This document shows positions 6,574 to 62,050 of a stretch of 64,000 nucleotides of DNA, in pieces. The position numbers and the translations under genes were made by a program. The DNA is from Candidatus Bathyarchaeota archaeon (GTDB taxonomy: Archaea; Thermoproteota; Bathyarchaeia; Bathyarchaeales; Bathyarchaeaceae): NCBI GenBank assembly GCA_963806645.1, contig CAWDYQ010000002.1, positions 395,141 to 459,140 on the forward strand. Reading direction: 5' to 3'. Every line of letters begins with the position of its first letter. Positions within the stretch are counted from its first letter, which is position 1. The notes beneath the pieces are model-generated. The model ran no database searches. It was not told the DNA's origin and worked only from the letters and a program-made list of their open reading frames with translations.

Positions 6574-6684
6574 GCCGGGGTGACAGAGCGGTAATGTGCC
6601 GGTCTCGAAATGACTCAACTGTACGTCAGAAGACAACCGGTGGTGCTTGGCGCCACATGGGTTCAAATCCCATCCCCGGCGCCA
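6574..6684 (+). tRNA. tRNA-Ser(CGA) with canonical 37/38 intron and encoded CCA
   Basis: Acceptor GCCGGGG/CCCCGGC, discriminator G plus CCA. Anticodon stem CCGGT/ACCGG, loop CUCGAA..A with CGA at 6606-6608. About 25-nt insert at 6610-6634. Long variable arm GTGGTGC/GCGCCAC. T arm ATGGG-TTCAAAT-CCCAT. Confidence 0.85.
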
Positions 6685-38998: not shown

Positions 38999-39535
38999 CT
39001 ATAGTATGCGTTTCATTACGATGTCTCCTTTTCCAGCAGCAGATATTGTCTTAAATCCGTGTTGTGCATAGAACTGTTGTAGTGGAATTCCTTTTTCGTT
39101 CTTTAATTCAGTGTCTAAAACTATTGAGTAGTATTTTTTTGTTTGTGCCCAGCGAATAAGAAAGTTGATGACAATATTTCCTATACCTTTTCCTTTGGGT
39201 TTGACTGCGAATGTGTCGAGATAGAATGATTTTTTCGATTCATCTGGAATTGAGTAGCCGAAAACTATGATTTGGGGTTTGCCATCCATTGTGAGAAACC
39301 ATAAAACAAGTTCTGATTTTATAAGTGCTTTTTTTAATTCTTCAAACGTGTACTGTAATTCGCGCCTGAAACCTGTGTCTTCTATTTTGTGAAACCAGGA
39401 AAAGTAATGTTTGTTAAGTTCGTTTGGAAAAACTAGTTCCAATTTCCCCTCATAATTATTAGCCAGTTCATCTATAAGCAGCTGCCAAAACGGATTACCT
39501 TTCTCTAGTTGTAATATCGGTATTGTTTCTTTCAC
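38999..39535 (-). CDS. GNAT-family N-acetyltransferase
   Basis: 178 aa. Motif A VKPKGKGIGNIVINFLI and C-terminal FYAQHGF. Confidence 0.7.
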   Translation of the reverse strand: MKETIPILQLEKGNPFWQLLIDELANNYEGKLELVFPNELNKHYFSWFHKIEDTGFRRELQYTFEELKKALIKSELVLWFLTMDGKPQIIVFGYSIPDESKKSFYLDTFAVKPKGKGIGNIVINFLIRWAQTKKYYSIVLDTELKNEKGIPLQQFYAQHGFKTISAAGKGDIVMKRIL

Positions 39536-39584: not shown

Positions 39585-40577
39585 CTATAGTTTTAAACCA
39601 TAACGGTTACATGCAGATTCAAGAAGTCTGCCTACCAGCATGTCATAGGTGTATCCTGATTTCATTGCCATGTAAGGATAAAATGACAGATCGTTTTCTT
39701 TGGTATCGAAGTCCATTCCAGGCAGTGGATTAATTTCCAAGAAAAATAGTTCTTCTTGGCTGTTCATGCGAAAGTCGATTCTAGCAAAATCTTTGACATC
39801 CAACGCATACCAAATGTTACGTGATAACTCTTCAAGTGTTTTTTTTAGTTTTTCTGGTATTTGTGCAGGGCAAATATAGTGTTCCAACGAGTCTAGGACA
39901 GTTTTTGCTCGTTGCCCAAACACATCTCCTACCTCAGGAAACTTGGAAAAATCTATTTCCAGAATTGCAAGAATCTCTGGATCTTTGTTTGGTTGTCCAA
40001 GTAGTCCGGTGCTGAATTCTCTGCCTTCAATAAATTGTTCAACTAGTATTGGTTGCTTGTATTCTGTTATCATTTGTTTTAGTTTTGTGTGTAGTTGTGG
40101 TTTGTTATATACCAAATTTTCTTCGGTGATTCCGATTGAAGAGCCTTCTTCGTTTGGTTTCAGCAGATAAGGAAAGCCTTTGTTTATTCTTTCTGCTTCT
40201 TGAAGGTTTTCACATACGTAAAATTTTGGGGTAGATATTTTGTGATAAAGTAGAGTCTTTTTTGTCCATGCTTTGTTTAGGCAAATTGCAGTCGTTAGCA
40301 CGTTAGAGCCGATGTAAGGGATATTAAGCATTTCAAGTATGGCGGGTACGTGCGATTCGCGGCTGTTACCCCTTAGTCCCTCTGCTCTGTTGAAAACGAG
40401 ATCTGGTTTTGCTTTTTTGATGTTTTCGGCAAAGTTTTCGTCAGCTTCAACGAATATGTATTCATGTTTGGTGTTTTCGATTCCGTGTTTTATAAGCTCA
40501 ATTGTGTGTGGGGGGTCATATTCTACTTCGAATTCGGTTTCAGTTTGGCGTGTATTCAGAACTAATGCTATCCGCAT
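39585..40577 (-). CDS. ATP-grasp ligase, D-alanine--D-alanine ligase-like
   Basis: 330 aa. Ddl-like layout (MRIALV.., GSNVLTTAICLNKAWTK, LKPNEEGSSIGI, EINPLPG). Confidence 0.7.
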   Translation of the reverse strand: MRIALVLNTRQTETEFEVEYDPPHTIELIKHGIENTKHEYIFVEADENFAENIKKAKPDLVFNRAEGLRGNSRESHVPAILEMLNIPYIGSNVLTTAICLNKAWTKKTLLYHKISTPKFYVCENLQEAERINKGFPYLLKPNEEGSSIGITEENLVYNKPQLHTKLKQMITEYKQPILVEQFIEGREFSTGLLGQPNKDPEILAILEIDFSKFPEVGDVFGQRAKTVLDSLEHYICPAQIPEKLKKTLEELSRNIWYALDVKDFARIDFRMNSQEELFFLEINPLPGMDFDTKENDLSFYPYMAMKSGYTYDMLVGRLLESACNRYGLKL

Positions 40578-40630: not shown

Positions 40631-42007
40631 TTAAAAATTGAATGATGTCAATTCTTCTTTATAGATTGAGTTTATTGCGTTTCTCAACTCTTTAGGGACC
40701 GATATTGAACTATGTAAAGTGCAGAATGTTTTATACAGTTCATCTTCTCTTTCTTTTGCTTCCTGATACAGTGGGCTTGTCTTAAATTCTTCAATAAGGC
40801 TTCCATTATTCTCTCTTTTAGATGCTAGATAGAATGCGAAAAGTTGCTCGTCCCTGCCTACCTTAGTGTGTGCATATGTCATTGTAATCGATTTGCCTCC
40901 AAACAATGTAAAAAATCTTTTACATTCTGGCTCTAGCATGTTTTTTTGTATTCCAATCTTTTGAGGGTCGATTCCGCTTCCAACGCACATTAAATACATT
41001 TTAGCGCAGATTGAGCAATCATGACACCAATGATAGTTTTGTCCTGCCTCAGTTTCTGTAAAGCAGCTCATCTGATACTTTGCAATCTCTGGATATCTAT
41101 GTGCTAAAATGTATTGGATCATCATATCCATAAGAGGCTCAATAAGACTGCCCGTGTTAACCGAACGTCCTGAGAAGGTTTGCGTAATTTGGTCAATATG
41201 TACAGTCCAGCGGTGAGATTGGTCATAGCACGGATGAACTGTCCATCTGCCATCAGAGTCCATGTAGCTTGAGGCAGCGGTTTGTTCGTTGCCAAATAGC
41301 AGATATTTCGATTTGAGTGAATATGCGAATGGGATTAATTCCAGTGCATACTCGGTTGTTTGCAGTCCCCAACCCAATTCTGTGAATGGTACTCCGAGAT
41401 GTGGGTAGTCACGAAACTTTCCAGTTTCGTGTTTCAAGGTGTTCAACTCTTTACCGAACTCGTTTTTGAAGCGTTTTGCTAGTTCGGTTTTGTGTTTTTG
41501 TTCGTATGTCATGCTCTGTTCTATAACGTAGACCATTTCTGGTTCTAGACCGATTTCTTCTGCCACTGCGTAAGTGAGGAGGCTGTCCTTTCCGAAGCTT
41601 GTTCCAACAAGGGCTCTGGATGGTGAATCTACAGGTTGATTGGAGGGATATACAATGTTTGAATCTAGGAATTGATATTCTGTATTGAAGAACTTTCGAA
41701 CAGTTTCATCTGTACATGTTCCATCAACTTCTGTGCATGAAGGTATGTCTTTGAGGAAGTTTTGTATGAAGTATGGTTCTAGTAATGGGAGTCCTGAATG
41801 GTAAATTATTTTTAATGAATCGAATATTAGTGGCAAATGCATTGTGGTAGCAAGTGCAAGGTTGTCTTTGAGTGCTTTTTGTGTGTCTTTAGGTGTTGCT
41901 TCCCAAACATGGGTTGGGTAATTTATTGGATACGGTATGTCTCGAAAACTGATTTCCACTCCAGTATTAGTAACCTTTGAATATATTTGCAGTGGATTCA
42001 TACCCAA
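40631..42007 (-). CDS. hypothetical enzyme with degenerate PP-loop (SFGKDS) and CxxCxxC motif
   Basis: 458 aa. GTSFGKDSLL at aa 135-144 resembles the SGGKDS ATP-pyrophosphatase loop. HWCHDCSICAKMY lies later in the sequence. Confidence 0.4.
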   Translation of the reverse strand: MGMNPLQIYSKVTNTGVEISFRDIPYPINYPTHVWEATPKDTQKALKDNLALATTMHLPLIFDSLKIIYHSGLPLLEPYFIQNFLKDIPSCTEVDGTCTDETVRKFFNTEYQFLDSNIVYPSNQPVDSPSRALVGTSFGKDSLLTYAVAEEIGLEPEMVYVIEQSMTYEQKHKTELAKRFKNEFGKELNTLKHETGKFRDYPHLGVPFTELGWGLQTTEYALELIPFAYSLKSKYLLFGNEQTAASSYMDSDGRWTVHPCYDQSHRWTVHIDQITQTFSGRSVNTGSLIEPLMDMMIQYILAHRYPEIAKYQMSCFTETEAGQNYHWCHDCSICAKMYLMCVGSGIDPQKIGIQKNMLEPECKRFFTLFGGKSITMTYAHTKVGRDEQLFAFYLASKRENNGSLIEEFKTSPLYQEAKEREDELYKTFCTLHSSISVPKELRNAINSIYKEELTSFNF

Positions 42008-42209: not shown

Positions 42210-43424
42210 CTAGAGTTCTGTATTTGGAAACTCTATTCTTCGTAAATACTTCTTAGCATACTCGGGTTCATGCGCAAGTTCCTGGCTTCTTAACAATTGC
42301 CTCTCAAGTCGACCCAATGCTGTTTGAAACGTTGCCTCAACGCCATAGCCTTCGCCGGAGCTGAAAAATGAGCCTCTTCTTGTCCTAAACTGTAGTCGAC
42401 AATGAATCAACTGTTCTCCCTTGTAGTTTGTTCCATGTGTTTTCATATACACGAAAAGTGTTCCCGATTCGAGTATCTTTTGGTATTTTTTTGAGAAAAC
42501 TTCGAAATCGCCCATTATGTAGCTACGTTGAATGTTGTCTATTTCTACGCCTTTAACTGAAAACTCAACTTTTATTTGCTGTTTTGGTGTTTCCATTTCG
42601 GCTAGTGGTTCAAGAAGGTCTCTTTTTGTCAGAATTCCTGTGGGTCTTCCTTTAGTGACAATAACCAAAGAAGAAATGCTGTATTTTTGCATGTTTTTTA
42701 CAGCATCTTTTAACGTGTTTTCTGGCAAAACGGTGATGACTGGTTTTGTCATTATTCCTTTTGCTGAAATGCTTAGAACTGGAACTTTCTCTCCTGCAAT
42801 ATCTCCTACCTTTTGGCGATGTCTTGGTTGAAAAATACCTGTGATTATGTCTTTTATGCTTACAATACCTACTAGAGTGCCGTCTTTAACTATTGGCACA
42901 TGAGAAATGTTGTGTTCCCTGAAGAGGCTTAGGACAGCTCCTACTGACTCGTTTTCTTCAATAAGGAACGGTTTCTTTGTCATCATTTCCTCAACTTTGT
43001 TGTTGCCCCATTTCCCAACAACTGCGCCCTGAATAAGGGCATCATCCGTAACGATTCCCACTAATTTCTCTCCGTTGAAAACTGGGAGCTGGCTAATTCC
43101 GCTGGTTATCATTAGTCTCGCTACTTCACCAAGAGATTCCTCAAGGGATACAGTGGGCGCTGAACGCATTAAACTCTCCACTTTAGTTGTAGCTGGATTA
43201 TACCTTGACCTGACTATCCATCTGTGGGCAATTACTCCCGCGTATTTTCCTTTACTGTCTAAGACAACCAACACTGGCGTTGATTCTTCGTTAAGAATAG
43301 AGAGACATGCAGAAAGCAGGTCGTCTTTGCTGATGCTCCTAAATTTGGTTGATAAAACGTCTTTTACGATACTTGAAACCATACTCACTTCTCCAAATAA
43401 CTCATTTCTATAAAAGCAATTCAA
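42210..43424 (-). CDS. 4xCBS (two Bateman modules) protein with HPF/RaiA-like C-terminal domain
   Basis: Four CBS repeats at aa 15-280. The C-terminal part IKVEFSVKGVEID..YI..F..L...SGEGYGVEATFQTALGRLERQLLR follows the HPF/YfiA pattern. The start may be MVSS (43382). Confidence 0.6.
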   Translation of the reverse strand: MNCFYRNELFGEVSMVSSIVKDVLSTKFRSISKDDLLSACLSILNEESTPVLVVLDSKGKYAGVIAHRWIVRSRYNPATTKVESLMRSAPTVSLEESLGEVARLMITSGISQLPVFNGEKLVGIVTDDALIQGAVVGKWGNNKVEEMMTKKPFLIEENESVGAVLSLFREHNISHVPIVKDGTLVGIVSIKDIITGIFQPRHRQKVGDIAGEKVPVLSISAKGIMTKPVITVLPENTLKDAVKNMQKYSISSLVIVTKGRPTGILTKRDLLEPLAEMETPKQQIKVEFSVKGVEIDNIQRSYIMGDFEVFSKKYQKILESGTLFVYMKTHGTNYKGEQLIHCRLQFRTRRGSFFSSGEGYGVEATFQTALGRLERQLLRSQELAHEPEYAKKYLRRIEFPNTEL

Positions 43425-43495
43425 ACATACAATATTAATTCTTGCGAAGTCTTTAACGTTTTGCTAGTTTGGTAAAAAGCGTTCCTTAAATTTCG

Positions 43496-44419
<924 letters not shown>

Positions 44420-44462: not shown

Positions 44463-45494
44463 CTATTCCATCACTGATTCAACCGTCATGTTTAGAACAA
44501 TCTCAGCTATGTCCATCGAGTATTCGGCTATCCTTCTAACGCTTTCAATAACTAGTCGAAGGTTAGCTGCTTCTTCAATATCGGTCTCTTTTGACGAAAG
44601 CAGGACTTTATGTTCTAACTCGATTATGCTGTTGGCTTTTGAGATGACACTATCTGCTAATAAGTAATCGCGTCTAAACAAAGACTCTATCGAAGTTTCG
44701 AAAGAAGAAATTGCAACTTCATTCATTTCTTGAATTGCAATTAGAAACTCGTCATTCAACTGTCTTTTTAGTAACTGAACATATTTTGCTATGTTTGTTG
44801 CGTGGTCAGCTGTTCTTTCTACCATTTTAGTTATGAGTCTATAGCCGAGACAATCTTTTGGCTTTTCTAATCCTATCTCAGTTACTATTCTTGGATTTTG
44901 AATCGCTATTTTCAGTTGACGTATTATATAAAGATGAAATCTGTTTACTTCATAGTCTGTGGCTCTAACATCACTTGCTACCTGGTAATCCATGTTCTTG
45001 AGGGCAGTCATTGCGTCTTTATGCATAGATGCTGTTATTATCGTCATTCGCCGCAAAGCGCTTGGAACAGACAATTCGGGGTAACTTAACAAAACTTGCA
45101 AAGTCAACTCTGTGGAAGTGTCATTGACAATTTCTGTGCCAACAAGCATGTTTCGAGCAAAAGTTTTGACTGCGTTTCTTTGAGTTGACAAAATCGCTTT
45201 CTGGTCTTTTGCTCTTATGTGAATTATATTATAACCCTGTAAATACACGGCAACTGTTTTTCTTATTAATGAATCAGAACTGTCTTCTGGAGAAACTTTG
45301 ATTTGTCCTTCTTCTGTTTTTTCGGATTTTCCTAATCCTGGAGGCAAAACCGTTAGGGACCCATTTTCTTCTTGTTGAATAAGCAATGAGCTACCTTTTT
45401 CAAGTCCATTTTGGATGATCCATCTTTTCGGCAACGAAATTACATACGTGGATCCTCCTGTGACTTGAAGCTTTCTTGTTTCTCCCTCGTTCAA
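44463..45494 (-). CDS. AbrB/SpoVT-domain + tandem PhoU-domain regulator
   Basis: N-terminal KLQVTGGSTYVISLPKRW (AbrB-like swapped hairpin) followed by two PhoU-like helical repeats. Confidence 0.65.
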   Translation of the reverse strand: MNEGETRKLQVTGGSTYVISLPKRWIIQNGLEKGSSLLIQQEENGSLTVLPPGLGKSEKTEEGQIKVSPEDSSDSLIRKTVAVYLQGYNIIHIRAKDQKAILSTQRNAVKTFARNMLVGTEIVNDTSTELTLQVLLSYPELSVPSALRRMTIITASMHKDAMTALKNMDYQVASDVRATDYEVNRFHLYIIRQLKIAIQNPRIVTEIGLEKPKDCLGYRLITKMVERTADHATNIAKYVQLLKRQLNDEFLIAIQEMNEVAISSFETSIESLFRRDYLLADSVISKANSIIELEHKVLLSSKETDIEEAANLRLVIESVRRIAEYSMDIAEIVLNMTVESVME

Positions 45495-45872
45495 CGTATC
45501 ATCTCCTTATTTCTTTATTAAATCTATATAGACTATTTTTACATATATATAATAATTTGATAACCTATTAATTATTTCAACCACTTCTTCCTCCTGATAA
45601 CGGTAAAGAAAAATTAAAAAGGTGAATTATTTTCCCAACCTCAGAATTTCAAATCATCACCCCGTATTTAAAAGGCCAAAATCAAGCTAAAACATCGGCG
45701 AAGAAAATGAAACTTCAAAAATGTTATGATAATATTTGCACGAACATTTTAACTCAACTTTCACTGTCATTTCTTTAAAACTTTTCCTGTAAACAAAGTT
45801 TTATTGAAACCACTTTTTTGTAAGTATACTTTTTATAGAGTTCTTTTGAATACTATTGCGAGTCTGATCAGG

Positions 45873-47033
45873 ATGGATCGAAGAAACAAACGACGCCTGA
45901 GATTGTTTCCGAAGCAAGGTTACATACTCCTTCTTATCGGAATCCTGCTAGGCTTCATGGTTTTTCTCGCAGTCTCCGCAATAACATCCACAGGAAAAGG
46001 AAGTGGGGGTTCCGGACAGGAAGGTTTACCCTCAAACATCAGTTTCACATTCCTTTACACAAGCGAGAAAGATGGATGGATAAAAGCCGTCACACCTACT
46101 TTTGAACAATGGTTTTTCGATCGTTTCAACATTACAGTCAATGTAGAATTGATAGTAACCGGAAGCCATGACAGTGTAAACTTAATCCTTCAGGAAAGTT
46201 CACGACCAACAGCTTGGAGTCCAGCATCCAGTGTTTGGATACCCTACCTAAACCAGAAATGGGTAAGTTTAGATAAAGGACAAGAAATAGCTCAAGACTC
46301 TACGCCTCTCGTTTTGTCTCCTGTCGTAATAGCGGGGTGGGCTTCCTTCTTTGAAGACAACAATGTTACGAGCTTCAACGATCTGTATCGGTTAGCTCAA
46401 GAAGGGATTGAATACAAGTACGGCCATCCAGATCCATTATTAAGCAATGGCGGCGTCATGGCTGAAGTGTTAGAATTCGCTGAGGCCTTGGGAAAGAAGC
46501 CTGAAGAGTTCAATTTTGCTGACTTCACAAACTCAGATGCTTTGGAGTTTGTTAGAACAATAGAATCAAAAACTGTAAACTACGGAAAAAGCACAGGATT
46601 CTTTGGAAAATGGGCGTCTGAGAATGGTCCCACCGCAATCGATTGTTTCACAGTCTACGAAAGTGTAGTTATTAGTAATGCGGAAAAAGCCACCCGGAAA
46701 TGGGGTGATACTTTGGTGGCTGTTTATCCGGAAGATGGAACCTTACTTTCAGATCATCCGTATGTTATCCTGAATGTGCCTTGGGTCAGTGAGTACCAAA
46801 AATTTGCTGCCTCTCAGTATTTGTATTATCTACTTCAGGAAAGTAACCAAGACAAAGCCCAAGAATACGGCTTTAGACCCGCTAATCCTAGTGTTCCCCT
46901 TGATGTTGATGTCTTTAATGAGAAAAATGGTGTTGCTTTTGAAATAAAAGTTCCCACTTATCGACCTTTGTCTGGAGAATCGATGGAGAATCTTTTCACG
47001 GTTTGGCCTTCTGTTAAAAATCCTGGGGTGTGA
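45873..47033 (+). CDS. ABC transporter substrate-binding protein, ligand unknown
   Basis: ATG at 45873 gives a basic N-terminus plus one TM/signal anchor (ILLLIGILLGFMVFLAV), followed by a periplasmic-binding-protein-like domain. Confidence 0.6.
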   Translation: MDRRNKRRLRLFPKQGYILLLIGILLGFMVFLAVSAITSTGKGSGGSGQEGLPSNISFTFLYTSEKDGWIKAVTPTFEQWFFDRFNITVNVELIVTGSHDSVNLILQESSRPTAWSPASSVWIPYLNQKWVSLDKGQEIAQDSTPLVLSPVVIAGWASFFEDNNVTSFNDLYRLAQEGIEYKYGHPDPLLSNGGVMAEVLEFAEALGKKPEEFNFADFTNSDALEFVRTIESKTVNYGKSTGFFGKWASENGPTAIDCFTVYESVVISNAEKATRKWGDTLVAVYPEDGTLLSDHPYVILNVPWVSEYQKFAASQYLYYLLQESNQDKAQEYGFRPANPSVPLDVDVFNEKNGVAFEIKVPTYRPLSGESMENLFTVWPSVKNPGV

Positions 47034-48733
47034 CAAACTTTAGTCAAGCGAAGGGGAAAAAAACGTTGCTCTCCAGAATTGGCGTTTCTGCAACTGTAAT
47101 TAGTTTAATTCTTTTTGTTTTTTTACCAAGTTTTTTTTTGATATCTTTTACATTTACCCGTTGGCCTGAAGTTTACACAGAAGTTTTTGCAAATCCTCTA
47201 ATTGGAGATACAAATTGGATAGAAATCCAAAAATATCTTGGTTTGTCTCTTCGTCTTGCCCTTTCTGCTATTGTAATCGACTTGATCTTTGGGATTCCTC
47301 TTGCGTACATACTTGCTCGAAAGAAGTTCTGGGGAAAAGGGTTTCTTGAAGACCTTATTTCTTTCACGTTAGTAATTCCTACCTCCGGTTTTGGTTTTGC
47401 TACACTGATCACATGGACTTCAGCGGATGGACTTGGCGCTCTATTAACTGGAGGAAATGTGCAGATCGATTCGGTTATTCCTTTTCTTAATGTTCCTTTC
47501 TTGATGTTGATTATACATGTTGCTTTGACATTTCCATATATTGTAAAAACCCTCAAGGCTAAACTGGAAGACATGTCAACGCTTTTTGAGCAGGCTTCCG
47601 GAACCCTGGGAGCTGCGCCTTTGACAACATTTAGAAAGATTCTGGTTCCATTAACTTTACCTGCGATTTTTTCAGGAACAGTTCTAGCTTTTGCTAGGTC
47701 TCTGGGAGAAACCGGAGCCACATTGATTGTGTCAGGAATATTTACTACTGCCCCAATCGCGGTTATTAGTTGGGTATCCCAGTTTAAGTTCGGCTCCGCC
47801 GCATTCTTAGGCAGCTTATTGATAATTGTGGCATCTGCAATAATTCTCCCCGTAGAATTTTTCTTGAAAAAAAAGGGAATCACATCTTTCTCATTTTTCT
47901 CGACTCTTCATATTCAAAAAAGGCTCCAAAAGTTTGAGGATTTTGCTTCTCGAAAACTATCACGGGTCAGAGATATAGTTGTCGTACTTTTCCTCATTAT
48001 AGTGGTTATAGCACCAATAGTTTATATCATATATAATGTTTCAGCATATTGGAACATGGATCCAGACACTGGCAAAGTTACCGAAAGCGTTGTTTATCAA
48101 TTGTTTGGCCCATCAAACTATTTCTCTGCTTTGATGGATGCAACTTTGGTTTCTTTTGCATCTGCTGCAATTGCAACTTATGTAGCAGCGTGTATTGCAA
48201 TTCCAACAGTGTTCTTGATAATGCGTTCTAGATTTGGCAGTATCCTCAGAGCCTTTCTTAGAGTTCCATTAATTGTTCCCACGTCTGCACTTGGTTTATC
48301 AATACTACTTTTATGGGGTCCTGGAGGAATGAAGCTCGCAGACCCAGGGATATGGCTAATAATTTTAACCCATATAGTGTTCTCTGTTCCTGTAATAGTC
48401 GAACCTACACTTGCCACATTTGAAGGATCTGATATTCCCCTATACGAGGACGCATCGATTACCCTAGGCGCCAATTCCTATAACAAGGTAGAATCAATTT
48501 CTCTTCCTTTGTTGAAAAGAGGAATCTTAACTGGAGTTATCCTTTCCTTTACACGTTCCTTGGGTGAAACAGGTGCGACTTTTCTTGTGATGGGTAGTGA
48601 TGTAACAATTCCTCCATTAGTCGTAAACATGGTTGAATCTTATGCGATTCCTGCAGCCCTTTTTGCCTCAACCTACCTAATCGCTCTAGCGTTTATTCTT
48701 CTTATGATCTTCCGAAAGGTGACTACAAGATGA
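47030..48733 (+). CDS. ABC transporter permease, fused double domain
   Basis: 567 aa with two EAA-type loops, FARSLGETGATLIV and FTRSLGETGATFLV (CysTW/ModB/FbpB-like). Confidence 0.75.
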   Translation: MTNFSQAKGKKTLLSRIGVSATVISLILFVFLPSFFLISFTFTRWPEVYTEVFANPLIGDTNWIEIQKYLGLSLRLALSAIVIDLIFGIPLAYILARKKFWGKGFLEDLISFTLVIPTSGFGFATLITWTSADGLGALLTGGNVQIDSVIPFLNVPFLMLIIHVALTFPYIVKTLKAKLEDMSTLFEQASGTLGAAPLTTFRKILVPLTLPAIFSGTVLAFARSLGETGATLIVSGIFTTAPIAVISWVSQFKFGSAAFLGSLLIIVASAIILPVEFFLKKKGITSFSFFSTLHIQKRLQKFEDFASRKLSRVRDIVVVLFLIIVVIAPIVYIIYNVSAYWNMDPDTGKVTESVVYQLFGPSNYFSALMDATLVSFASAAIATYVAACIAIPTVFLIMRSRFGSILRAFLRVPLIVPTSALGLSILLLWGPGGMKLADPGIWLIILTHIVFSVPVIVEPTLATFEGSDIPLYEDASITLGANSYNKVESISLPLLKRGILTGVILSFTRSLGETGATFLVMGSDVTIPPLVVNMVESYAIPAALFASTYLIALAFILLMIFRKVTTR

Positions 48734-48778
48734 TACAAAATAAAAAATTTAACAAAATTATGGATAGGGTGAGCTGAA

Positions 48779-49888
48779 ATGCCTGAAGTAAAACTAAAAA
48801 ATGTAGTTAAAACCTTTGATAAAGGACGAATAACTGCTGTTGATCATGTTAATTTAACTGTAAAAGACAAGGAATATCTGACACTTCTTGGTCCAAGTGG
48901 ATGTGGAAAAACTACCACCTTGCGTATGATAGCTGGCCTGCAGTTGCCTGATGAAGGTGAAATATCCATCGGTGAACGTCTTGTATCGAATCTTCCACCC
49001 GAATATAGGGACATTGGATACGTCTTTCAGGAGTATGCGCTTTTTCCTCATATGGACGTTTGGAATAATGTAACCTATGGACCACGTGTAAAAGGGTGGG
49101 ACGAAAAGAAGAGCAACAAGATTGGTCGTGAAATGTTAGAGCTTGTTAGACTCTTTGAGCGCACTGATGCATTTCCAGCTGAGTTGAGTGGAGGAATGAG
49201 ACAAAGGGTTGCTTTAGCTCGGGCGTTAGCTTCTGGTTCTAAGCTCTTATTGTTGGATGAACCTTTAGGTGCTTTAGACGCTAGAATTAGAACAGATTTG
49301 AGGTACGAAATTAGAAAACTTGTAAAAGACCTCGCGTTAACTGCTATTCATGTTACTCATGACCAAGCAGAAGCAATGGCGATCTCAGACAGAATTGCTG
49401 TAATGAGAAAGGGAAAGATTTTGCAAGTTGGGACTCCTCAGGAACTATATTTGACGCCTCAGCATATATTTGTGGCTAATTTTGTTGGAGAATCAAATTT
49501 TCTAGAAGGTTATGTTACCGAAAATGTTGAACATAAACTTACAGTCGAGCTTCGTAGAGGTATTTCTGTTAAATCAATGAACAAAGAGCACAAGAAAGGA
49601 GAAAAAGTTGTGGTTGGGGTAAGACCAGAAGTTTTGTCCATCGTGAAGGGAGAAAAAAGCGGATTGAATTCGATAGTTGGAAACATTGAAGGTTTCAGGT
49701 TTGAAGGAAATAATGTTCGATATGAAATTAGGCTCCATAATGATGATTTGGTAGTTGTTGTGCGTCCTGCACTAATGGGCGAATGGTATAAAGTGGGTGA
49801 GAAAATAACTGTCGATTTTCCTGTTGAGAAAAGCTTTGTTTTTTCATATCCTGAAAAGGGTTTAAGAACGGAATTAGCTTTGGAGTGA
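48779..49888 (+). CDS. ABC transporter ATPase with C-terminal TOBE-like domain
   Basis: GPSGCGKTT, LSGGMRQRVALARAL, LLLDEP, H-loop HVTHD. About 120 aa of C-terminal beta-rich extension. Confidence 0.85.
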   Translation: MPEVKLKNVVKTFDKGRITAVDHVNLTVKDKEYLTLLGPSGCGKTTTLRMIAGLQLPDEGEISIGERLVSNLPPEYRDIGYVFQEYALFPHMDVWNNVTYGPRVKGWDEKKSNKIGREMLELVRLFERTDAFPAELSGGMRQRVALARALASGSKLLLLDEPLGALDARIRTDLRYEIRKLVKDLALTAIHVTHDQAEAMAISDRIAVMRKGKILQVGTPQELYLTPQHIFVANFVGESNFLEGYVTENVEHKLTVELRRGISVKSMNKEHKKGEKVVVGVRPEVLSIVKGEKSGLNSIVGNIEGFRFEGNNVRYEIRLHNDDLVVVVRPALMGEWYKVGEKITVDFPVEKSFVFSYPEKGLRTELALE

Positions 49889-57973: not shown

Positions 57974-58015
57974 CTTTTCAATTCACCTGGTCCACTTTAA
58001 AATATTTTTTAGTGG

Positions 58016-59203
58016 TTACTTGCGTTTTCGAAAAAGCATAATTTCTTCGGGTGTGGTGCAGATGTATTCGAATCCGTTTTCTATTAGTTGGCGTGCTTCC
58101 TCGCTGTTTTTGGTTGCTTTTGAGGTGTAGTCGTCTCCTTTGAAGTCGACGAGCTGAGTGTACTTGAGGGTGTTCATGATGTTTTTGTGTCCGAGTACAT
58201 TCATGACGTGTAAGATGTCTTTGGTTTTGTGGTATTCCATGGTGGCTTTCCAGTGACGGAAAGTGTGGAAGTGTATTTGAAGTAATCTTGGGTTCTGAAG
58301 TTTTCGGCTTAAGTTTGCTCTTTGTTTTTGGAATAGTCGTCTTTGGGTTCTAACGTGTTTGCAGAAGATTTTGTTTGAGGTTTTCTTTAATGCCATTAGT
58401 CGGCTTAGTAGTTTGTTTGAGAGTTTGAAGATTCTTGGTTTGCTTCCTTTTTCTGGAGTTATTCTTACTGTTCCTGCTTCTAGGTCTAGATCCGTCCATT
58501 TGAGGTCGTTTGCTTCTCCGCATCTTGCTCCGGTTTCTTTTAGGAGTTGAAGAAAAGTTGAGGTCTTTTTTCCGCATCCAGCTATTAGCTCATCTAGTTC
58601 TTTTTCTGTTGGTATGAACGGTAGTTTGAAAGTGACTTTGTATCTTGGGGGGTCCCATTTTTTGTTTTGCATTCTTAGGTAGGCGGTGTAGGCGTCTGCT
58701 GCGTTCATTTTTCTTTTGTTGCACCATTCTTGTTTGGCGATGGCTTCCTTGATGCTGTCCTGATCGTCTAGGTTTGCGCCGCGTTTTGTTAGAGTTTTTA
58801 GGAGTCTTTCTCTGGTAGAGATTGTAGAGGGTGCGTAGCCTTCTTTTTTCATCCACCATGCGAAATTGAATAGGAGAGATTTTGTTTCTAGGTCTGTTTC
58901 TGTGGCTCCCGCAAGCCTTTTTTCTGTTCGGGTTTCCACTTTGACCAAATTTTTCGCCGCCTTTGTCTTGCTGACGCAGATTTGGCAATTAGAAAGTAAG
59001 CTATAAGGTGTATTTAATGGCAATCTATAGTTAGTTTGAACAGGTTTAGGCTTATTTGAAGAGATTAAGTTTGTTTCGCTGAACCGGTAACCACAATCAC
59101 GACAGAAATGCCGTTGAATTTTTCCATGCTCTGTGTGTCTAGTCCCATCCTTCCATGTTTTAGTCGAGTTGCATTCTGGGCAGGTTGGAACCTGTTCTGT
59201 CAT
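58016..59203 (-). CDS. tyrosine recombinase/integrase with N-terminal zinc ribbon
   Basis: CPECNS..CRDCGY N-terminus. Catalytic region has R (ETGARCGE), HTFRHW, LGH and the tyrosine in NTLKYTQ. Confidence 0.8.
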   Translation of the reverse strand: MTEQVPTCPECNSTKTWKDGTRHTEHGKIQRHFCRDCGYRFSETNLISSNKPKPVQTNYRLPLNTPYSLLSNCQICVSKTKAAKNLVKVETRTEKRLAGATETDLETKSLLFNFAWWMKKEGYAPSTISTRERLLKTLTKRGANLDDQDSIKEAIAKQEWCNKRKMNAADAYTAYLRMQNKKWDPPRYKVTFKLPFIPTEKELDELIAGCGKKTSTFLQLLKETGARCGEANDLKWTDLDLEAGTVRITPEKGSKPRIFKLSNKLLSRLMALKKTSNKIFCKHVRTQRRLFQKQRANLSRKLQNPRLLQIHFHTFRHWKATMEYHKTKDILHVMNVLGHKNIMNTLKYTQLVDFKGDDYTSKATKNSEEARQLIENGFEYICTTPEEIMLFRKRK

Positions 59204-59214
59204 TTTTCTAAGCC

Positions 59215-59481
59215 TCAGGTATGAAGAAACAGACGCATTAATTGACCTGGTTTAGCTTCGAGTTTCCATCTTATTTCCCAAGGAACCGTTATTCGCCCAT
59301 CTATTGACAGTTTGGCGAAGAATTCTTCTTTATATGCGCTCCAATGGCTGGCTTGTTGTATTTTTATTCTTAAGAAACGGCCAGATTCCAGTTTGAATTG
59401 TTGTCTAATTTCTGTAGGTATTTGGATGCGATTTTCAGATTGTATCCGTGCTAGGAATTGTATTGTGTCATCTTTTGTCAA
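59215..59481 (-). CDS. tandem AbrB/SpoVT-domain protein
   Basis: 88 aa with two repeats of the looped-hinge motif (NRIQIPTEIRQQF and GRITVPWEIRWKL). TTG start after a GAGGTGA SD. Confidence 0.55.
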   Translation of the reverse strand: MTKDDTIQFLARIQSENRIQIPTEIRQQFKLESGRFLRIKIQQASHWSAYKEEFFAKLSIDGRITVPWEIRWKLEAKPGQLMRLFLHT

Positions 59482-59517
59482 CTTTTGTCATCTCACCTCA
59501 TCTTTTTTCAACTTTGT
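59468..59517. repeat. two about 20-bp direct repeats TCATCTTTT(G/T)TCAACTTT(T)GT
   Basis: Copies at 59468-59488 and 59498-59517, at or upstream of the AbrB-like gene start. Confidence 0.6.
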
Positions 59518-59670
59518 ACAACGTTGGACATCTTTCCTCAACGGGTGATATTGTTGCGTTAAGCCCTGTTTTTGAAAAGCAAGCAGGAAACAGCTTTGTT
59601 TTGATTCTTTGGTATTTTTTTCTGGCTGTCCTTCTTCTTCCACTAATAATTTACTTGTAAATTTTCAGGG

Positions 59671-61458
59671 TCATTGGGTCCATCTCCAGTAGCCTTCCGT
59701 ATCCATAGCCAGATCTCCGTTTTCAACCAGTTTTTCGAAGAGTTGTTCTGTTTCAAGTTGGGTTAATTTGGGATCAATTTGTTTGACTGTGTTTTCGAAG
59801 TTCTGTTGGGTACATTTTTCGAAGTTCTCTTTTAGCATCGTTTTTAAGTTGAATGTTCCTAGAATTTGTAGGTTTTCTTCGATAAGACAATTTTTAGGCT
59901 TATTTGCTGTTTTAGTGTCTGTTTTAGGCTCTAATGGGTCTAGAAAATATTCCTCTTTGAAAAGCTTCTCTAGGAAATGTTTTGTTAGATCGCATTTTGA
60001 GTTTAAACGATGTTTGTCTTTGTCTACTAAATTGTTGACTATGTAGATGTTTTTTTGGGAGGAATATTTTTTTAGGTTTTCTAGCCAGTTTTTGAGGTCT
60101 TTTTCGTGAAAGAAGGGCGTAGATTGTCGGAGCGAGTAATATAGACGACTTTCAGCCTTCTTTAAAGGATAAACCAGTCGTCTTCTTTTGTCTTCAGGGT
60201 CCTGTATGGTGTCAACCCAGCCGATGTCCCGTAATAATTCTATGTATTTGTAGACGCTTTTTTTGCTGACTTTTTCTGACATTGTGTTGTTGTGTTTCTC
60301 TACCAAGTCCTCGTAGTTTGCTGGATTTTCAAAAGGAACGATAATTTTGTGGTAAAAGGATACGATGTTTCCGGGTATTCCTGTTCTGGTTGTTTCTTCG
60401 AAGCTTTTTAGGAGTTCCAGTGCTGTCAAAAAGTCGTGGATGTTTGCCATCCAATAATAATTTTTGTTTAGCACTACGTATGCTCTGTTGAAGATGTTAA
60501 GCAGGCAGTTTAGTTCTATTAAGGCTATGAAGTGTAGGTAATCTCTCATGTCTCTGGACAGTGTTGAATGGTAAATGCTGCTTAGTTCTTTAGAATATGG
60601 GATTACTACATTATTTACTATGCAGAGTCTGCCGGTTAGTATGTCCAAGTATTCTTGGAGTTTGTTGAATTCTTGGTCTGTTTTTTGGTCAAATTTCCAC
60701 GGATAAGCTTTCTTTTCACCAATTAGGTTTATGGCTTCTTTGATTTTTTGTTGATCTAAATCTGGTGTAACAGTGAATCCTCTGGTCGCTAAATCTTCGA
60801 TGTATTTGGTGTCTGTAGTGCAGAAGATGCATGCTGGCCAGCCTTTGAGGACAACGTGCATGGTTCGTAGGGCTCCTCCTCCGGGTTTGTCTGTGAATTT
60901 GTAGCTGATCTGAGGAGCATCATGGCTAAGTACTGGTCTTAGTCGCATCAAAGTTTCTATATGAGGTGATTCCAGAAAAACTAGTATTTTTCCTTCCAAA
61001 TCTACAAGGTAGTATGCTCTTCTTAGTTTTGCTCTCCAGTTTTTTTGGGCTAAGTCGTAGGCTTTTTTGTCAAATTTTCCTTTGTCGTTGCTGTAGTCTT
61101 CTTTTTTTGGTCTGTCTTCTATTGGGTCGATCTCTTTTTTGGTTTCAGAGTCAATAAGAGTTCCAAAGTCGTGTACTAATGCTGTTGGGGATAGGCCTCC
61201 GAGCATCCAGATAAAATGTTGAGGAAAATAGCGGAGGGCTTGGATTACGTTGTATGTTTTTCCTATAGATGAAGGGCCTTTCAAAAACAGGTTTTGTGGG
61301 TTTTGAGAATAAGCGCTTAAAGCTGTTAAGAAGACCATTCTTTTGGTGGCCTGGTCTTTTTTTACTGTCTTGTCTAGATGGTTCATGTAGACGTTGAGAA
61401 GGTTTCTTGTTTTCTTTAATTGTAAAAAAGTTTCTTCTTGTGGGGTTTCGTTGATCAT
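59671..61458 (-). CDS. P-loop NTPase (SF3-helicase/replication-protein-like) with C-terminal wHTH
   Basis: 595 aa. Walker A GPSSIGKT, Walker B-like KILVFLES, CIFCTTD. wHTH-like KKSVYKYIELLRDIGWV. Confidence 0.5.
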   Translation of the reverse strand: MINETPQEETFLQLKKTRNLLNVYMNHLDKTVKKDQATKRMVFLTALSAYSQNPQNLFLKGPSSIGKTYNVIQALRYFPQHFIWMLGGLSPTALVHDFGTLIDSETKKEIDPIEDRPKKEDYSNDKGKFDKKAYDLAQKNWRAKLRRAYYLVDLEGKILVFLESPHIETLMRLRPVLSHDAPQISYKFTDKPGGGALRTMHVVLKGWPACIFCTTDTKYIEDLATRGFTVTPDLDQQKIKEAINLIGEKKAYPWKFDQKTDQEFNKLQEYLDILTGRLCIVNNVVIPYSKELSSIYHSTLSRDMRDYLHFIALIELNCLLNIFNRAYVVLNKNYYWMANIHDFLTALELLKSFEETTRTGIPGNIVSFYHKIIVPFENPANYEDLVEKHNNTMSEKVSKKSVYKYIELLRDIGWVDTIQDPEDKRRRLVYPLKKAESRLYYSLRQSTPFFHEKDLKNWLENLKKYSSQKNIYIVNNLVDKDKHRLNSKCDLTKHFLEKLFKEEYFLDPLEPKTDTKTANKPKNCLIEENLQILGTFNLKTMLKENFEKCTQQNFENTVKQIDPKLTQLETEQLFEKLVENGDLAMDTEGYWRWTQ

Positions 61459-61831
61459 TACCGGTTATCCTCGTTTTTGAGTTTTTGTCTGTAAATTCGG
61501 TCATGGTTTTTGTTGTAGAGCCAATAGCTATAGTTGTAGTCTTCACCGTGATATCGGGTGCTTATTGTGGCGTTGTTTTGTTTTAGAATGTGTAGGGCTC
61601 GGGTCCATTTTTCTTTCTGGTTGTCTTTTTGTTCTGTGACTTCAAAAGTTCCCAGTTTTTGGTATTGCGTTCCGTGTAGTTTAGGTTAAAGTTGGTTTCA
61701 GAAGCAGCTGGAATCTTTTGACTAACTATTCCGTGTTTTTGGGCGATTTGTTGTTTAAACTCATAACATGCGCTTTCTATTGCTGTTACAAACTCTAGAA
61801 AATTGGCTTCTAGTTTTTCTTCCAGGATCTT
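61458..61831 (-). pseudogene. ORF remnant: continues in frame past the TGA of the 61832-62050 gene, then needs one frameshift
   Basis: ...QQKMVKR-TGA-KILEEKLEANFLEFVTAIES...NTKNW in one frame. GTFEVTEQKDNQKEKWTRALHILKQNNATISTRYHGEDYNYSYWLYNKNHDRIYRQ in another. Ends with TAATG overlap onto the 595-aa gene. Confidence 0.5.
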
Positions 61832-62050
61832 TCACCTCTTAACCATTTTTTGTTGTGGTTGGTTGATCCAGAAAATCCAGCCTTTTGAAGTCTTTTGGCC
61901 GTTAATTTCTTCTTGAAGAAGCAGTTCTAGGCAATGTTTTAGTGCTGTGTTCCAGTTTCCGATTTTGCATTCTACTCTAATTGTTTCTATGCCCAAAGGA
62001 AGTTGGTTTGTTTTTAGGCAGTTTATTATTCTGTTTTTCGTTTCGTCCAT
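61832..62050 (-). CDS. small wHTH-like protein of the element
   Basis: 72 aa. May be the N-terminal part of a longer gene interrupted by TGA at 61832-61834. Confidence 0.4.
   Translation of the reverse strand: MDETKNRIINCLKTNQLPLGIETIRVECKIGNWNTALKHCLELLLQEEINGQKTSKGWIFWINQPQQKMVKR

Follow-up and report, generated by a model that had tools for sequence, protein, structure and literature searches.

The archaeal ribosome hibernation factor HibA (Hib) has been described from Pyrococcus abyssi (PAB0961) and Thermococcus barophilus (TERMP_00697) (Madru et al., Nat Commun 2026, PMC13324472). Its C-terminal HPF domain carries two archaeal-specific insertions, and the loop joining its third and fourth CBS repeats (CBS3 and CBS4) enters the peptidyl-transferase centre (PTC) (PMC13324472). 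The CBS module is found at three positions on the 50S subunit, namely the PTC, uL5, and the L1 stalk, and in vitro translation is inhibited only when the C-terminal domain is present (PMC13324472). Deletion of hibA in T. barophilus results in ~60% fewer 70S ribosomes in stationary phase, a doubled lag phase, and delayed regrowth (PMC13324472). The CBS module of HibA binds AMP (Kd 12 µM) better than ADP and ADP better than ATP, and ribosome binding in reconstitutions is left unchanged by AMP or ATP (PMC13324472). HibA has been reported in 47% of 4,026 archaeal genomes, a set that includes Bathyarchaeia (PMC13324472). An independent preprint describes AHA (H. volcanii HVO_2384), a protein of the same architecture that carries two AMP molecules and whose knockout displays a phenotype; the preprint counts 3,160 homologs in 2,723 archaeal species belonging to 17 phyla (PMC12934967).

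Other ribosome factors related to HibA, i.e. Dri, SriA-D, and ARC-P/ARC-A, consist of CBS modules only, and ATP-triggered release has been shown for ARC alone. Dri, from Pyrobaculum calidifontis (PDB 9E6Q/9E7F), is a CBS-built archaeal hibernation factor that possesses a PTC loop and bridges both subunits. It comprises two CBS modules (~650 residues), is devoid of any HPF domain, and its CBS module is rotated by ~180 degrees on the 50S subunit relative to that of AHA. According to its description, Dri occurs largely within Thermoproteota, to which Bathyarchaeia also belong. SriA-D from Methanosarcina acetivorans (PDB 9ZNF/9ZNG/9ZNI) and ARC-P/ARC-A from Methanolobus are stand-alone CBS tetrads that reside on idle ribosomes, ARC sensing both AMP and ATP; these are separate or paired proteins that lack an HPF domain and make use of a different occlusion element. 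AMPK gamma and MJ1225 likewise adopt the fold of a CBS tetrad and have adenylate sites 3 and 4 in common with it; they serve as kinase regulatory subunits and have no ribosome-binding domain. Lastly, the bacterial and plastid HPF/RaiA (YfiA)/pY proteins bind to the 30S subunit at the same site as the homologous domains of HibA and AHA.

The Bathyarchaeia gene analyzed here lies within a 64-kb window (the whole stretch of DNA under study). With a probability of roughly 0.9, it is the Bathyarchaeia ortholog of HibA (Hib/AHA), whose product would bridge the ribosomal subunits and block translation, as judged from its sequence, its predicted structure, and analogy with the characterized proteins. 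The CBS tetrad, the predicted HPF-type fold, the collinear homology, the PTC loop, the larger archaeal-specific insertion, and the CBS3/CBS4 nucleotide motifs that characterize HibA/AHA are all found in this protein. An initial annotation, made from the DNA letters, had recognized an HPF/RaiA-like domain placed after four CBS repeats, and this arrangement is confirmed (Pfam, four CBS repeats, E = 1.3e-47; Foldseek, E = 3e-6; HibA, E = 4e-62). Its proposal of a ribosome hibernation factor in an archaeon is likewise supported, by sequence, profile, predicted fold, and full-length homology to the characterized HibA. In contrast, its view of the HPF family as bacterial and plastid is out of date, HibA/Hib (PMC13324472), AHA (PMC12934967), and Sri/ARC having been published in 2025-2026. 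The novelty that it attached to the CBS and HPF architecture fails for the same reason, because the HibA/AHA family was described in those years together with its ribosome structure, phenotype, AMP binding, and archaeal distribution. The Bathyarchaeia gene is therefore an ordinary ortholog of an already known family and does not represent a new kind of system. A reading of the sequence alone nevertheless recovered the combination of an energy sensor with an HPF domain silencing the ribosome that cryo-EM established in 2025-2026.

The gene and its start codon

The hibA-family gene covers positions 42210..43382 of the minus strand and encodes 390 residues followed by a stop codon, as deduced from the list of open reading frames, the length of homologs, and the end-to-end match with HibA. 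The segment first assigned to the HPF/RaiA-like domain (42255-42578, minus strand) shares the reading frame of the ORF 42210-43424, and its translation is exactly the peptide that had been quoted, QIKVEFSVKGVEIDNIQRSY...LERQLLRSQELAHEPEYA. It corresponds to residues 283-390 of the mechanical 404-residue ORF and to residues 269-376 of the 390-residue protein. The HPF-type domain extends beyond the end of this segment with a conserved C-terminal helix and a tail, reaching position 42213. The ATG at 43382 is assigned as the true start because close homologs (more than 100) are nearly all exactly 390 residues long, a GGAGAA motif located 7-12 nt upstream of it is invariant in related genomes, and these genomes do not share the TTG at 43424. 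This TTG was considered as a start and ruled out on the same grounds.

Alignment of 8 Bathyarchaeum loci delineates a hibA upstream region (43389..43463, minus strand) that comprises a conserved, BRE/TATA-like CAAAACGTTAAAG block (43451-43463, minus strand), starting 81 nt and ending ~69 nt upstream of the ATG, and the invariant, Shine-Dalgarno-like GGAGAA (43389-43394, minus strand). Both elements are contained in the 113-nt spacer that separates hibA from the preceding pyrB gene, and their conservation suggests that hibA possesses its own promoter and a start led by a Shine-Dalgarno sequence.

The orthologs bear a variety of public names, among them "CBS domain-containing protein", "hypothetical protein", "predicted transcriptional regulator", and "IMP dehydrogenase". 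In JGI, automated naming has labelled some of the close homologs [quoted passage not shown]. The practical value of the present assignment at this locus is a correct annotation, and hibA would mark a capacity for ribosome hibernation in Bathyarchaeia. These are abundant, uncultured archaea of the subsurface, for which dormancy is ecologically central.

Relationship to HibA and the HPF-type domain

A PDB sequence search with the whole protein reports a match with chain 9sr9_H (392 residues) at E = 4.1e-62, query residues 16-398 being aligned with chain residues 2-389, alongside matches with the entries 9SRA-9SRF and 9T7H. The entries 9SR9-9SRF and 9T7H are P. abyssi 70S-HibA complexes (Madru et al., Nat Commun 2026, PMC13324472), and the chain numbering derived from the alignment reproduces the published segments 283-SAL-285 and 324-KFRGVHL-330 (PMC13324472). 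The two proteins are collinear, with a global identity of 31% and 13 gap positions only; identity amounts to 33% in the CBS module and to 25% in the HPF domain. When submitted alone, the C-terminal piece matches HibA with E = 9e-12, a value that reaches 1e-29 when it is used as a profile. A second full-length relative of known structure is a 406-residue "CBS domain-containing protein" (PDB 9l96, E = 1e-41); a literature search on the entries 9l96, 9l98, 9l9c, and 9l9v returned nothing relevant. The Bathyarchaeia protein differs from HibA by its phylum (Thermoproteota, as compared with the phylum of the Thermococcales) and by its host, which is probably mesophilic.

[quoted passage not shown] At its site, between β14 and β15 within the HPF-type domain, NYKGEQL (42408-42428, minus strand) aligns without a gap with KFRGVHL of P. 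abyssi HibA (residues 324-330). At the β13-α11 site (P. abyssi residues 283-285), VEI is collinear with SAL, and the hhalign comparison described below exhibits no RaiA gap there; this site comprises only three residues.

The HPF-type domain itself (42288..42575, minus strand) is delineated by AlphaFold, Foldseek, and hhalign, while Pfam returns PF02482 as its top match at a sub-threshold score. With the last 126-136 residues alone, the top matches are Ribosomal_S30AE (PF02482) and yfiA (TIGR00741), both nearly full length, and 22 of 30 family members individually match PF02482 (E <= 1, best E = 9.3e-5). However, the curated thresholds are missed by the single sequence (14.3-14.7 bits against 23.7 for PF02482, 13.5 against 40.9 for TIGR00741, E ~0.07). 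A HMMER profile of the C-terminal family, run against PDB sequences, finds HibA and 9l96 and no bacterial HPF chain, so that the link to bacterial HPF had to be drawn from hhalign and from fold comparison. For the former, the E. coli RaiA (b2597) and HPF sequences were taken from NC_000913; the RaiA sequence quoted in the initial annotation is indeed that of b2597. The hhalign comparison of the family alignment with E. coli RaiA/HPF reports E = 5.8e-5 (65% probability) over 89 columns, from β1 to α2. The stretch SGEGYGVEATFQTALGRLERQL falls in register with its RaiA counterpart, LERQL included, which bears out the SG...A...LERQL landmark noticed at the outset, and a gap of 6 residues opens in RaiA opposite the NYKGEQL insertion.

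AlphaFold2 models the full-length protein with a mean pLDDT of 78, and the C-terminal domain alone with a mean pLDDT of 85. The predicted HPF-type fold consists of a β-strand (residues 270-277), an α-helix (283-304), three β-strands (307-318, 324-334, and 338-346), and a second α-helix (348-365), followed by an extra helix (373-382); in the numbering of the domain-only model these elements read E6-13, H19-40, E43-54, E60-70, E74-82, and H84-101. Foldseek analysis of the full-length model against the PDB returned CBS-tetrad proteins alone. Because the CBS module dominates this search, and the PDB set used (entries to 2026-04-08) seemingly lacks the HibA entries, the C-terminal domain was modelled separately. 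With the domain model, ranks 1-37 are exclusively HPF/RaiA/pY proteins (E from 3e-6 to 4e-3, target-normalised TM <=0.82), including pY from spinach and Chlamydomonas, HPF from Listeria, Vibrio, E. coli, S. aureus, and Mycobacterium, and YfiA from E. coli and Thermus. The structure prediction and HPF comparison thus agree with the domain assignment made from the sequence.

These results bear on whether the resemblance to HPF might have arisen by chance or convergence, the C-terminal domain being in truth an ACT, a dsRBD-like, or a dimerization fold, as the initial annotation had itself considered. The sub-threshold Pfam and NCBIfam scores of the single sequence, and the failure of the family HMMER profile to reach bacterial HPF chains in the PDB, would go along with such a view. 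Nevertheless, folds other than HPF, PelC and dsRBD being the first, enter the Foldseek list only at E ~4e-3 or worse, the hhalign match spans the whole domain, PF02482 is matched by the majority of the relatives, and cryo-EM of HibA shows its homologous domain occupying the HPF site on the 30S subunit. We therefore regard a chance resemblance as next to negligible. Formally, the bacterial HPF profile families do not include the Bathyarchaeia protein; the predicted fold is common to both, and so is the sequence pattern (...G....S.E......A...L.RQL). As compared with bacterial HPF, the Bathyarchaeia domain displays an additional β2-β3 insertion of 6-7 residues and a longer C-terminal helix. Moreover, it is located at the C-terminus behind a CBS tetrad, and is neither a stand-alone protein nor associated with the dimerization domain of long HPF, so that 100S dimers are not expected.

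The fold is followed by a C-terminal extension (residues 366-390; 42213..42287, minus strand), defined from the model and the alignment, that comprises the extra helix and a conserved tail ...YAKKYLRRIEFPNTEL, and, at variance with HibA, ends in a conserved FPxTEL. This extension aligns with the part of HibA that, at the mRNA exit channel, touches h23/h24, uS7, uS11, and eS28. Its residues Y375, A376, and K377, which vary little or not at all in the family, match the HibA contacts Y380, A381, and K382.

Overall, the positions that contact the ribosome are not preferentially conserved. Of the 53 C-terminal-domain positions listed as ribosome contacts for the HibA-PTC structure (Supplementary Data 1, PMC13324472), 11 are identical and 24 similar between the two proteins, as compared with 18 and 31 of the 64 non-contact positions. 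Since their conservation does not exceed that of the remaining domain, the contact residues add no support for ribosome binding. Substitutions affect many HibA contact side chains, among them four arginines in contact with h44 (R292Y, R299V, R347S, and R362G) and the A2834-stacking tyrosine (Tyr195 of P. abyssi HibA, a valine in the Bathyarchaeia protein). Y312, K321, R361, K377, and K378 are kept, while new basic residues appear at the contact positions R333, R335, R365, and R381, with Lys or Arg present at 11 contact positions. The 30S interface would thereby remain basic in a reshuffled form, which is compatible with the view that HibA binding relies on many redundant contacts (PMC13324472), and constitutes no positive evidence for binding.

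The poor conservation of the P. abyssi contact residues may also be taken as a hint that this HibA-like protein has a main role other than hibernation, either as a CBS-type transcriptional or metabolic regulator or as an adenylate-regulated partner of replication or recombination. Close homologs are named "predicted transcriptional regulator" or "Inosine-5'-monophosphate dehydrogenase" in JGI and NCBI, pull-downs in Thermococcales associate HibA with replication and recombination proteins, and HhpR, a CM-3 CBS tetrad, is a transcription factor. However, Pfam analysis reports neither a catalytic nor a DNA-binding domain in the Bathyarchaeia protein, which scores 60.6 bits with the HhpR model NF053603 for a cut-off of 520; besides, HhpR is a stand-alone CBS tetrad, whereas an HPF domain is added here. 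This domain, essential for translation inhibition, is present and strongly conserved, with HCRLQ, GE.YG, and YAK as family-invariant motifs, and the best full-length relative is HibA itself. Such a different main role is hence improbable, and the assignment as a HibA ortholog is retained.

The CBS module and its putative adenylate sites

The N-terminal CBS module (residues 1-265; 42588..43382, minus strand) is made up of two Bateman pairs according to Pfam, AlphaFold, and Foldseek. Its four repeats occupy the N-terminal two-thirds of the protein, with approximate limits, all on the minus strand, of 43209-43370 for CBS1, 43020-43184 for CBS2, 42834-43001 for CBS3, and 42594-42770 for CBS4. The AlphaFold model of the module displays four β-α-β-β-α units. 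Foldseek retrieves the CBS tetrads AMPK-gamma, MJ1225, Dri, and SriA, the last of which resembles the module most closely (E = 4e-21); Dri is also structurally close (E = 5e-18), although the sequence match with Dri (9e6q_3, E = 2.6e-7) is confined to residues 88-198, a single Bateman pair. The Bathyarchaeia protein thus associates one CBS module with an HPF domain where Dri has two CBS modules and none. Its likeness to AHA is drawn from the published description of that protein.

The long loop between CBS3 and CBS4 (residues 186-204, PRHRQKVGDIAGEKVPVLS; 42771..42827, minus strand) is the counterpart of the HibA PTC loop (residues 190-207 of the P. abyssi protein), with which it aligns without gaps (8 of 18 residues identical). 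The residues P186, R187, R189, D194, E198, and K199 are kept in the family and define a core P-R-x-R...D-x-A-G-E-K. In the AlphaFold full-length model, this loop is the sole internal segment with a pLDDT below 50.

By homology with the characterized proteins, the HPF-type domain would sit in the mRNA/tRNA channel of the 30S subunit, covering the decoding center and the A and P sites, while the CBS tetrad would dock on the 50S subunit, where the CBS3-CBS4 loop could enter the PTC. Because one domain would be on the 30S and the other on the 50S subunit, a single polypeptide would span both of them and block translation, and under starvation or stress idle 70S ribosomes might be kept from dissociating and from being degraded. 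We infer ribosome binding, translation inhibition, and adenylate binding from the characterized homologs.

The ribose-binding motifs (G-h-h-S/T-x-x-D/N) are canonical in CBS3 (GIVSIKD; 42849..42869, minus strand) and in CBS4 (GILTKRD; 42618..42638, minus strand). In the CBS3 motif, the Ser is found in 32 of 32 family members and Asp or Asn in 32 of 32, while in the CBS4 motif the G, I, T, R, and D residues are invariant among 33 members. The corresponding motifs of CBS1 (GVIAHRW) and CBS2 (GIVTDDA) are degenerate, as they are in P. abyssi HibA. The restriction of canonical motifs to CBS3 and CBS4 agrees with the adenylate site at the CBS3/CBS4 junction of HibA and of H. volcanii AHA, and this junction probably binds AMP, or ADP/ATP, in the Bathyarchaeia protein, as judged from these motifs.

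Whether such binding would gate hibernation by the energy charge, as proposed in the initial annotation, is a separate matter: adenylate binding has been observed in the family, the HibA CBS module preferring AMP and AHA carrying two AMP molecules, but AMP and ATP have no visible effect on HibA binding to ribosomes in vitro. A true energy-charge switch, as an extension of the HibA identity, would require that AMP at CBS3/CBS4 promotes ribosome binding and that ATP drives release. The canonical motifs of CBS3 and CBS4, that of CBS4 being invariant, are in line with it, as are the order of affinities of the HibA CBS module (Kd 12 µM for AMP, followed by ADP and ATP), the two AMP molecules bound to AHA on the ribosome, and the release of ARC proteins from ribosomes by ATP. 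Nevertheless, saturating AMP or ATP leaves unchanged both the binding of HibA and its distribution of conformations on reconstituted 70S ribosomes, and we hold such a switch to be possible but doubtful. Slightly more doubtful still is its specific form in Bathyarchaeia HibA, in which AMP/ATP occupancy of the CBS4/CBS3 sites would steer loading onto and release from the ribosome. If this were true, the position of hibA right after pyrB, where pyrI would be expected, might reflect a coupling of hibernation with nucleotide supply, and the redistributed basic contact residues would mean a partly different 30S footprint. Bathyarchaeia are slow-growing, energy-starved sediment archaea.

Genomic context

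On the minus strand, the genes are ordered as phoU-like, pyrB, hibA, an unannotated 458-residue ORF, a Ddl-like ATP-grasp ligase, and a GNAT. The adjacency of pyrB and hibA is kept in 9 of 11 loci, and the downstream cassette is variable. No other CBS-module gene of the Dri, Sri, or CM-type clusters was found within the 64-kb window. The source organism belongs to Ca. Bathyarchaeum. Orthologs with 72-94% identity are detected by tblastn in Ca. Bathyarchaeum and other Bathyarchaeia, including the complete chromosome of Ca. Bathyarchaeum tardum (CP122380), and conservation of the gene among Ca. Bathyarchaeum genomes amounts to 72-95% identity. Bathyarchaeia HibA is encountered in the Thermoproteota, the phylum for which Dri has been described as a lineage-specific factor.

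Surroundings of hibA

The hibA gene (42210-43382, minus strand) lies in the window directly after pyrB (43496-44416, minus strand), which encodes the aspartate carbamoyltransferase catalytic chain, in the position where a pyrI regulatory-chain gene would be expected. The two genes are neighbours in nine of the 11 Ca. Bathyarchaeum loci compared, a conservation that may stem from co-regulation or from synteny alone. The region upstream of hibA (43389-43463, minus strand) contains several conserved blocks. The first, CAAAACGTTAAAG, begins 81 nt upstream of the hibA ATG, is conserved and is BRE/TATA-like, while the second, TTTTTRYARAAA, is semi-conserved and lies within what is presumably the 5' leader, where it may have a regulatory role. 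A GGAGAA motif in the same region is invariant.

The next gene downstream of hibA is a 458-aa ORF (40631-42007, minus strand), followed by genes for a Ddl-like ATP-grasp ligase (39585-40577, minus strand) and a GNAT acetyltransferase (38999-39535, minus strand). Neither Pfam nor PDB sequence searches return a match for the 458-aa ORF, and its sole signal is a faint NCBIfam match (E = 0.0028) to MurL, the UDP-MurNAc-L-Ala-L-Glu epimerase. Inspection by eye identifies SFGKDS and CHDCSIC motifs within it. Among the 11 Bathyarchaeum loci, six contain the ORF and the Ddl-like ligase and five contain the GNAT; in three others (L005, L010 and L011), the ORF and the ligase are not found beside hibA. 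Together, the three proteins may make up a short pathway that ligates amino acids or peptides.

Relatives of the window protein

The closest HibA ortholog of the window protein is encoded in L001 (CAVQRL010000018.1, a 729-kb contig), in which 11 genes are collinear with the window at 85-100% amino-acid identity. The L001 record is entitled 'uncultured Actinomycetota bacterium MFD09779.bin.3.436'. Since L001 is clearly a Bathyarchaeia genome, its public taxonomic label (Actinomycetota) looks wrong.

Among solved structures, the 406-aa 'CBS domain-containing protein' that forms chain a of PDB entries 9l96, 9l98, 9l9c and 9l9v is related to the window protein over its full length (E = 1e-41) and shares its CBS-HPF architecture. 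The searchable literature yielded no mention of these four codes, and this structure, another member of the HibA/AHA family, is therefore apparently unpublished or unindexed.

Other features of the window

Beyond pyrB, a gene on the minus strand (44463-45494) encodes a protein that carries a PhoU domain and, at its N-terminus, a DNA-binding domain of the AbrB/MazE type (SpoVT-AbrB). Divergent from this gene runs an ABC transporter operon comprising the solute-binding protein (45804-47033), the permease (47018-48733) and the ATPase (48773-49888), an arrangement that looks like a regulator plus its transport system.

Rfam reports a 108-nt tRNA at 6574-6681 on the plus strand (48 bits), whereas ARAGORN does not call it. 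Its 13-nt variable arm makes it a class II tRNA, of the Ser or Leu type, and its anticodon loop carries an insertion of 28 nt, presumably an intron.

Lastly, the AT skew is strongly negative across positions 58001-62000, at -0.32 to -0.36 in 2-kb windows, far exceeding that of the rest of the window, and this stretch coincides with long minus-strand ORFs (58016-59251 and 59671-61464).
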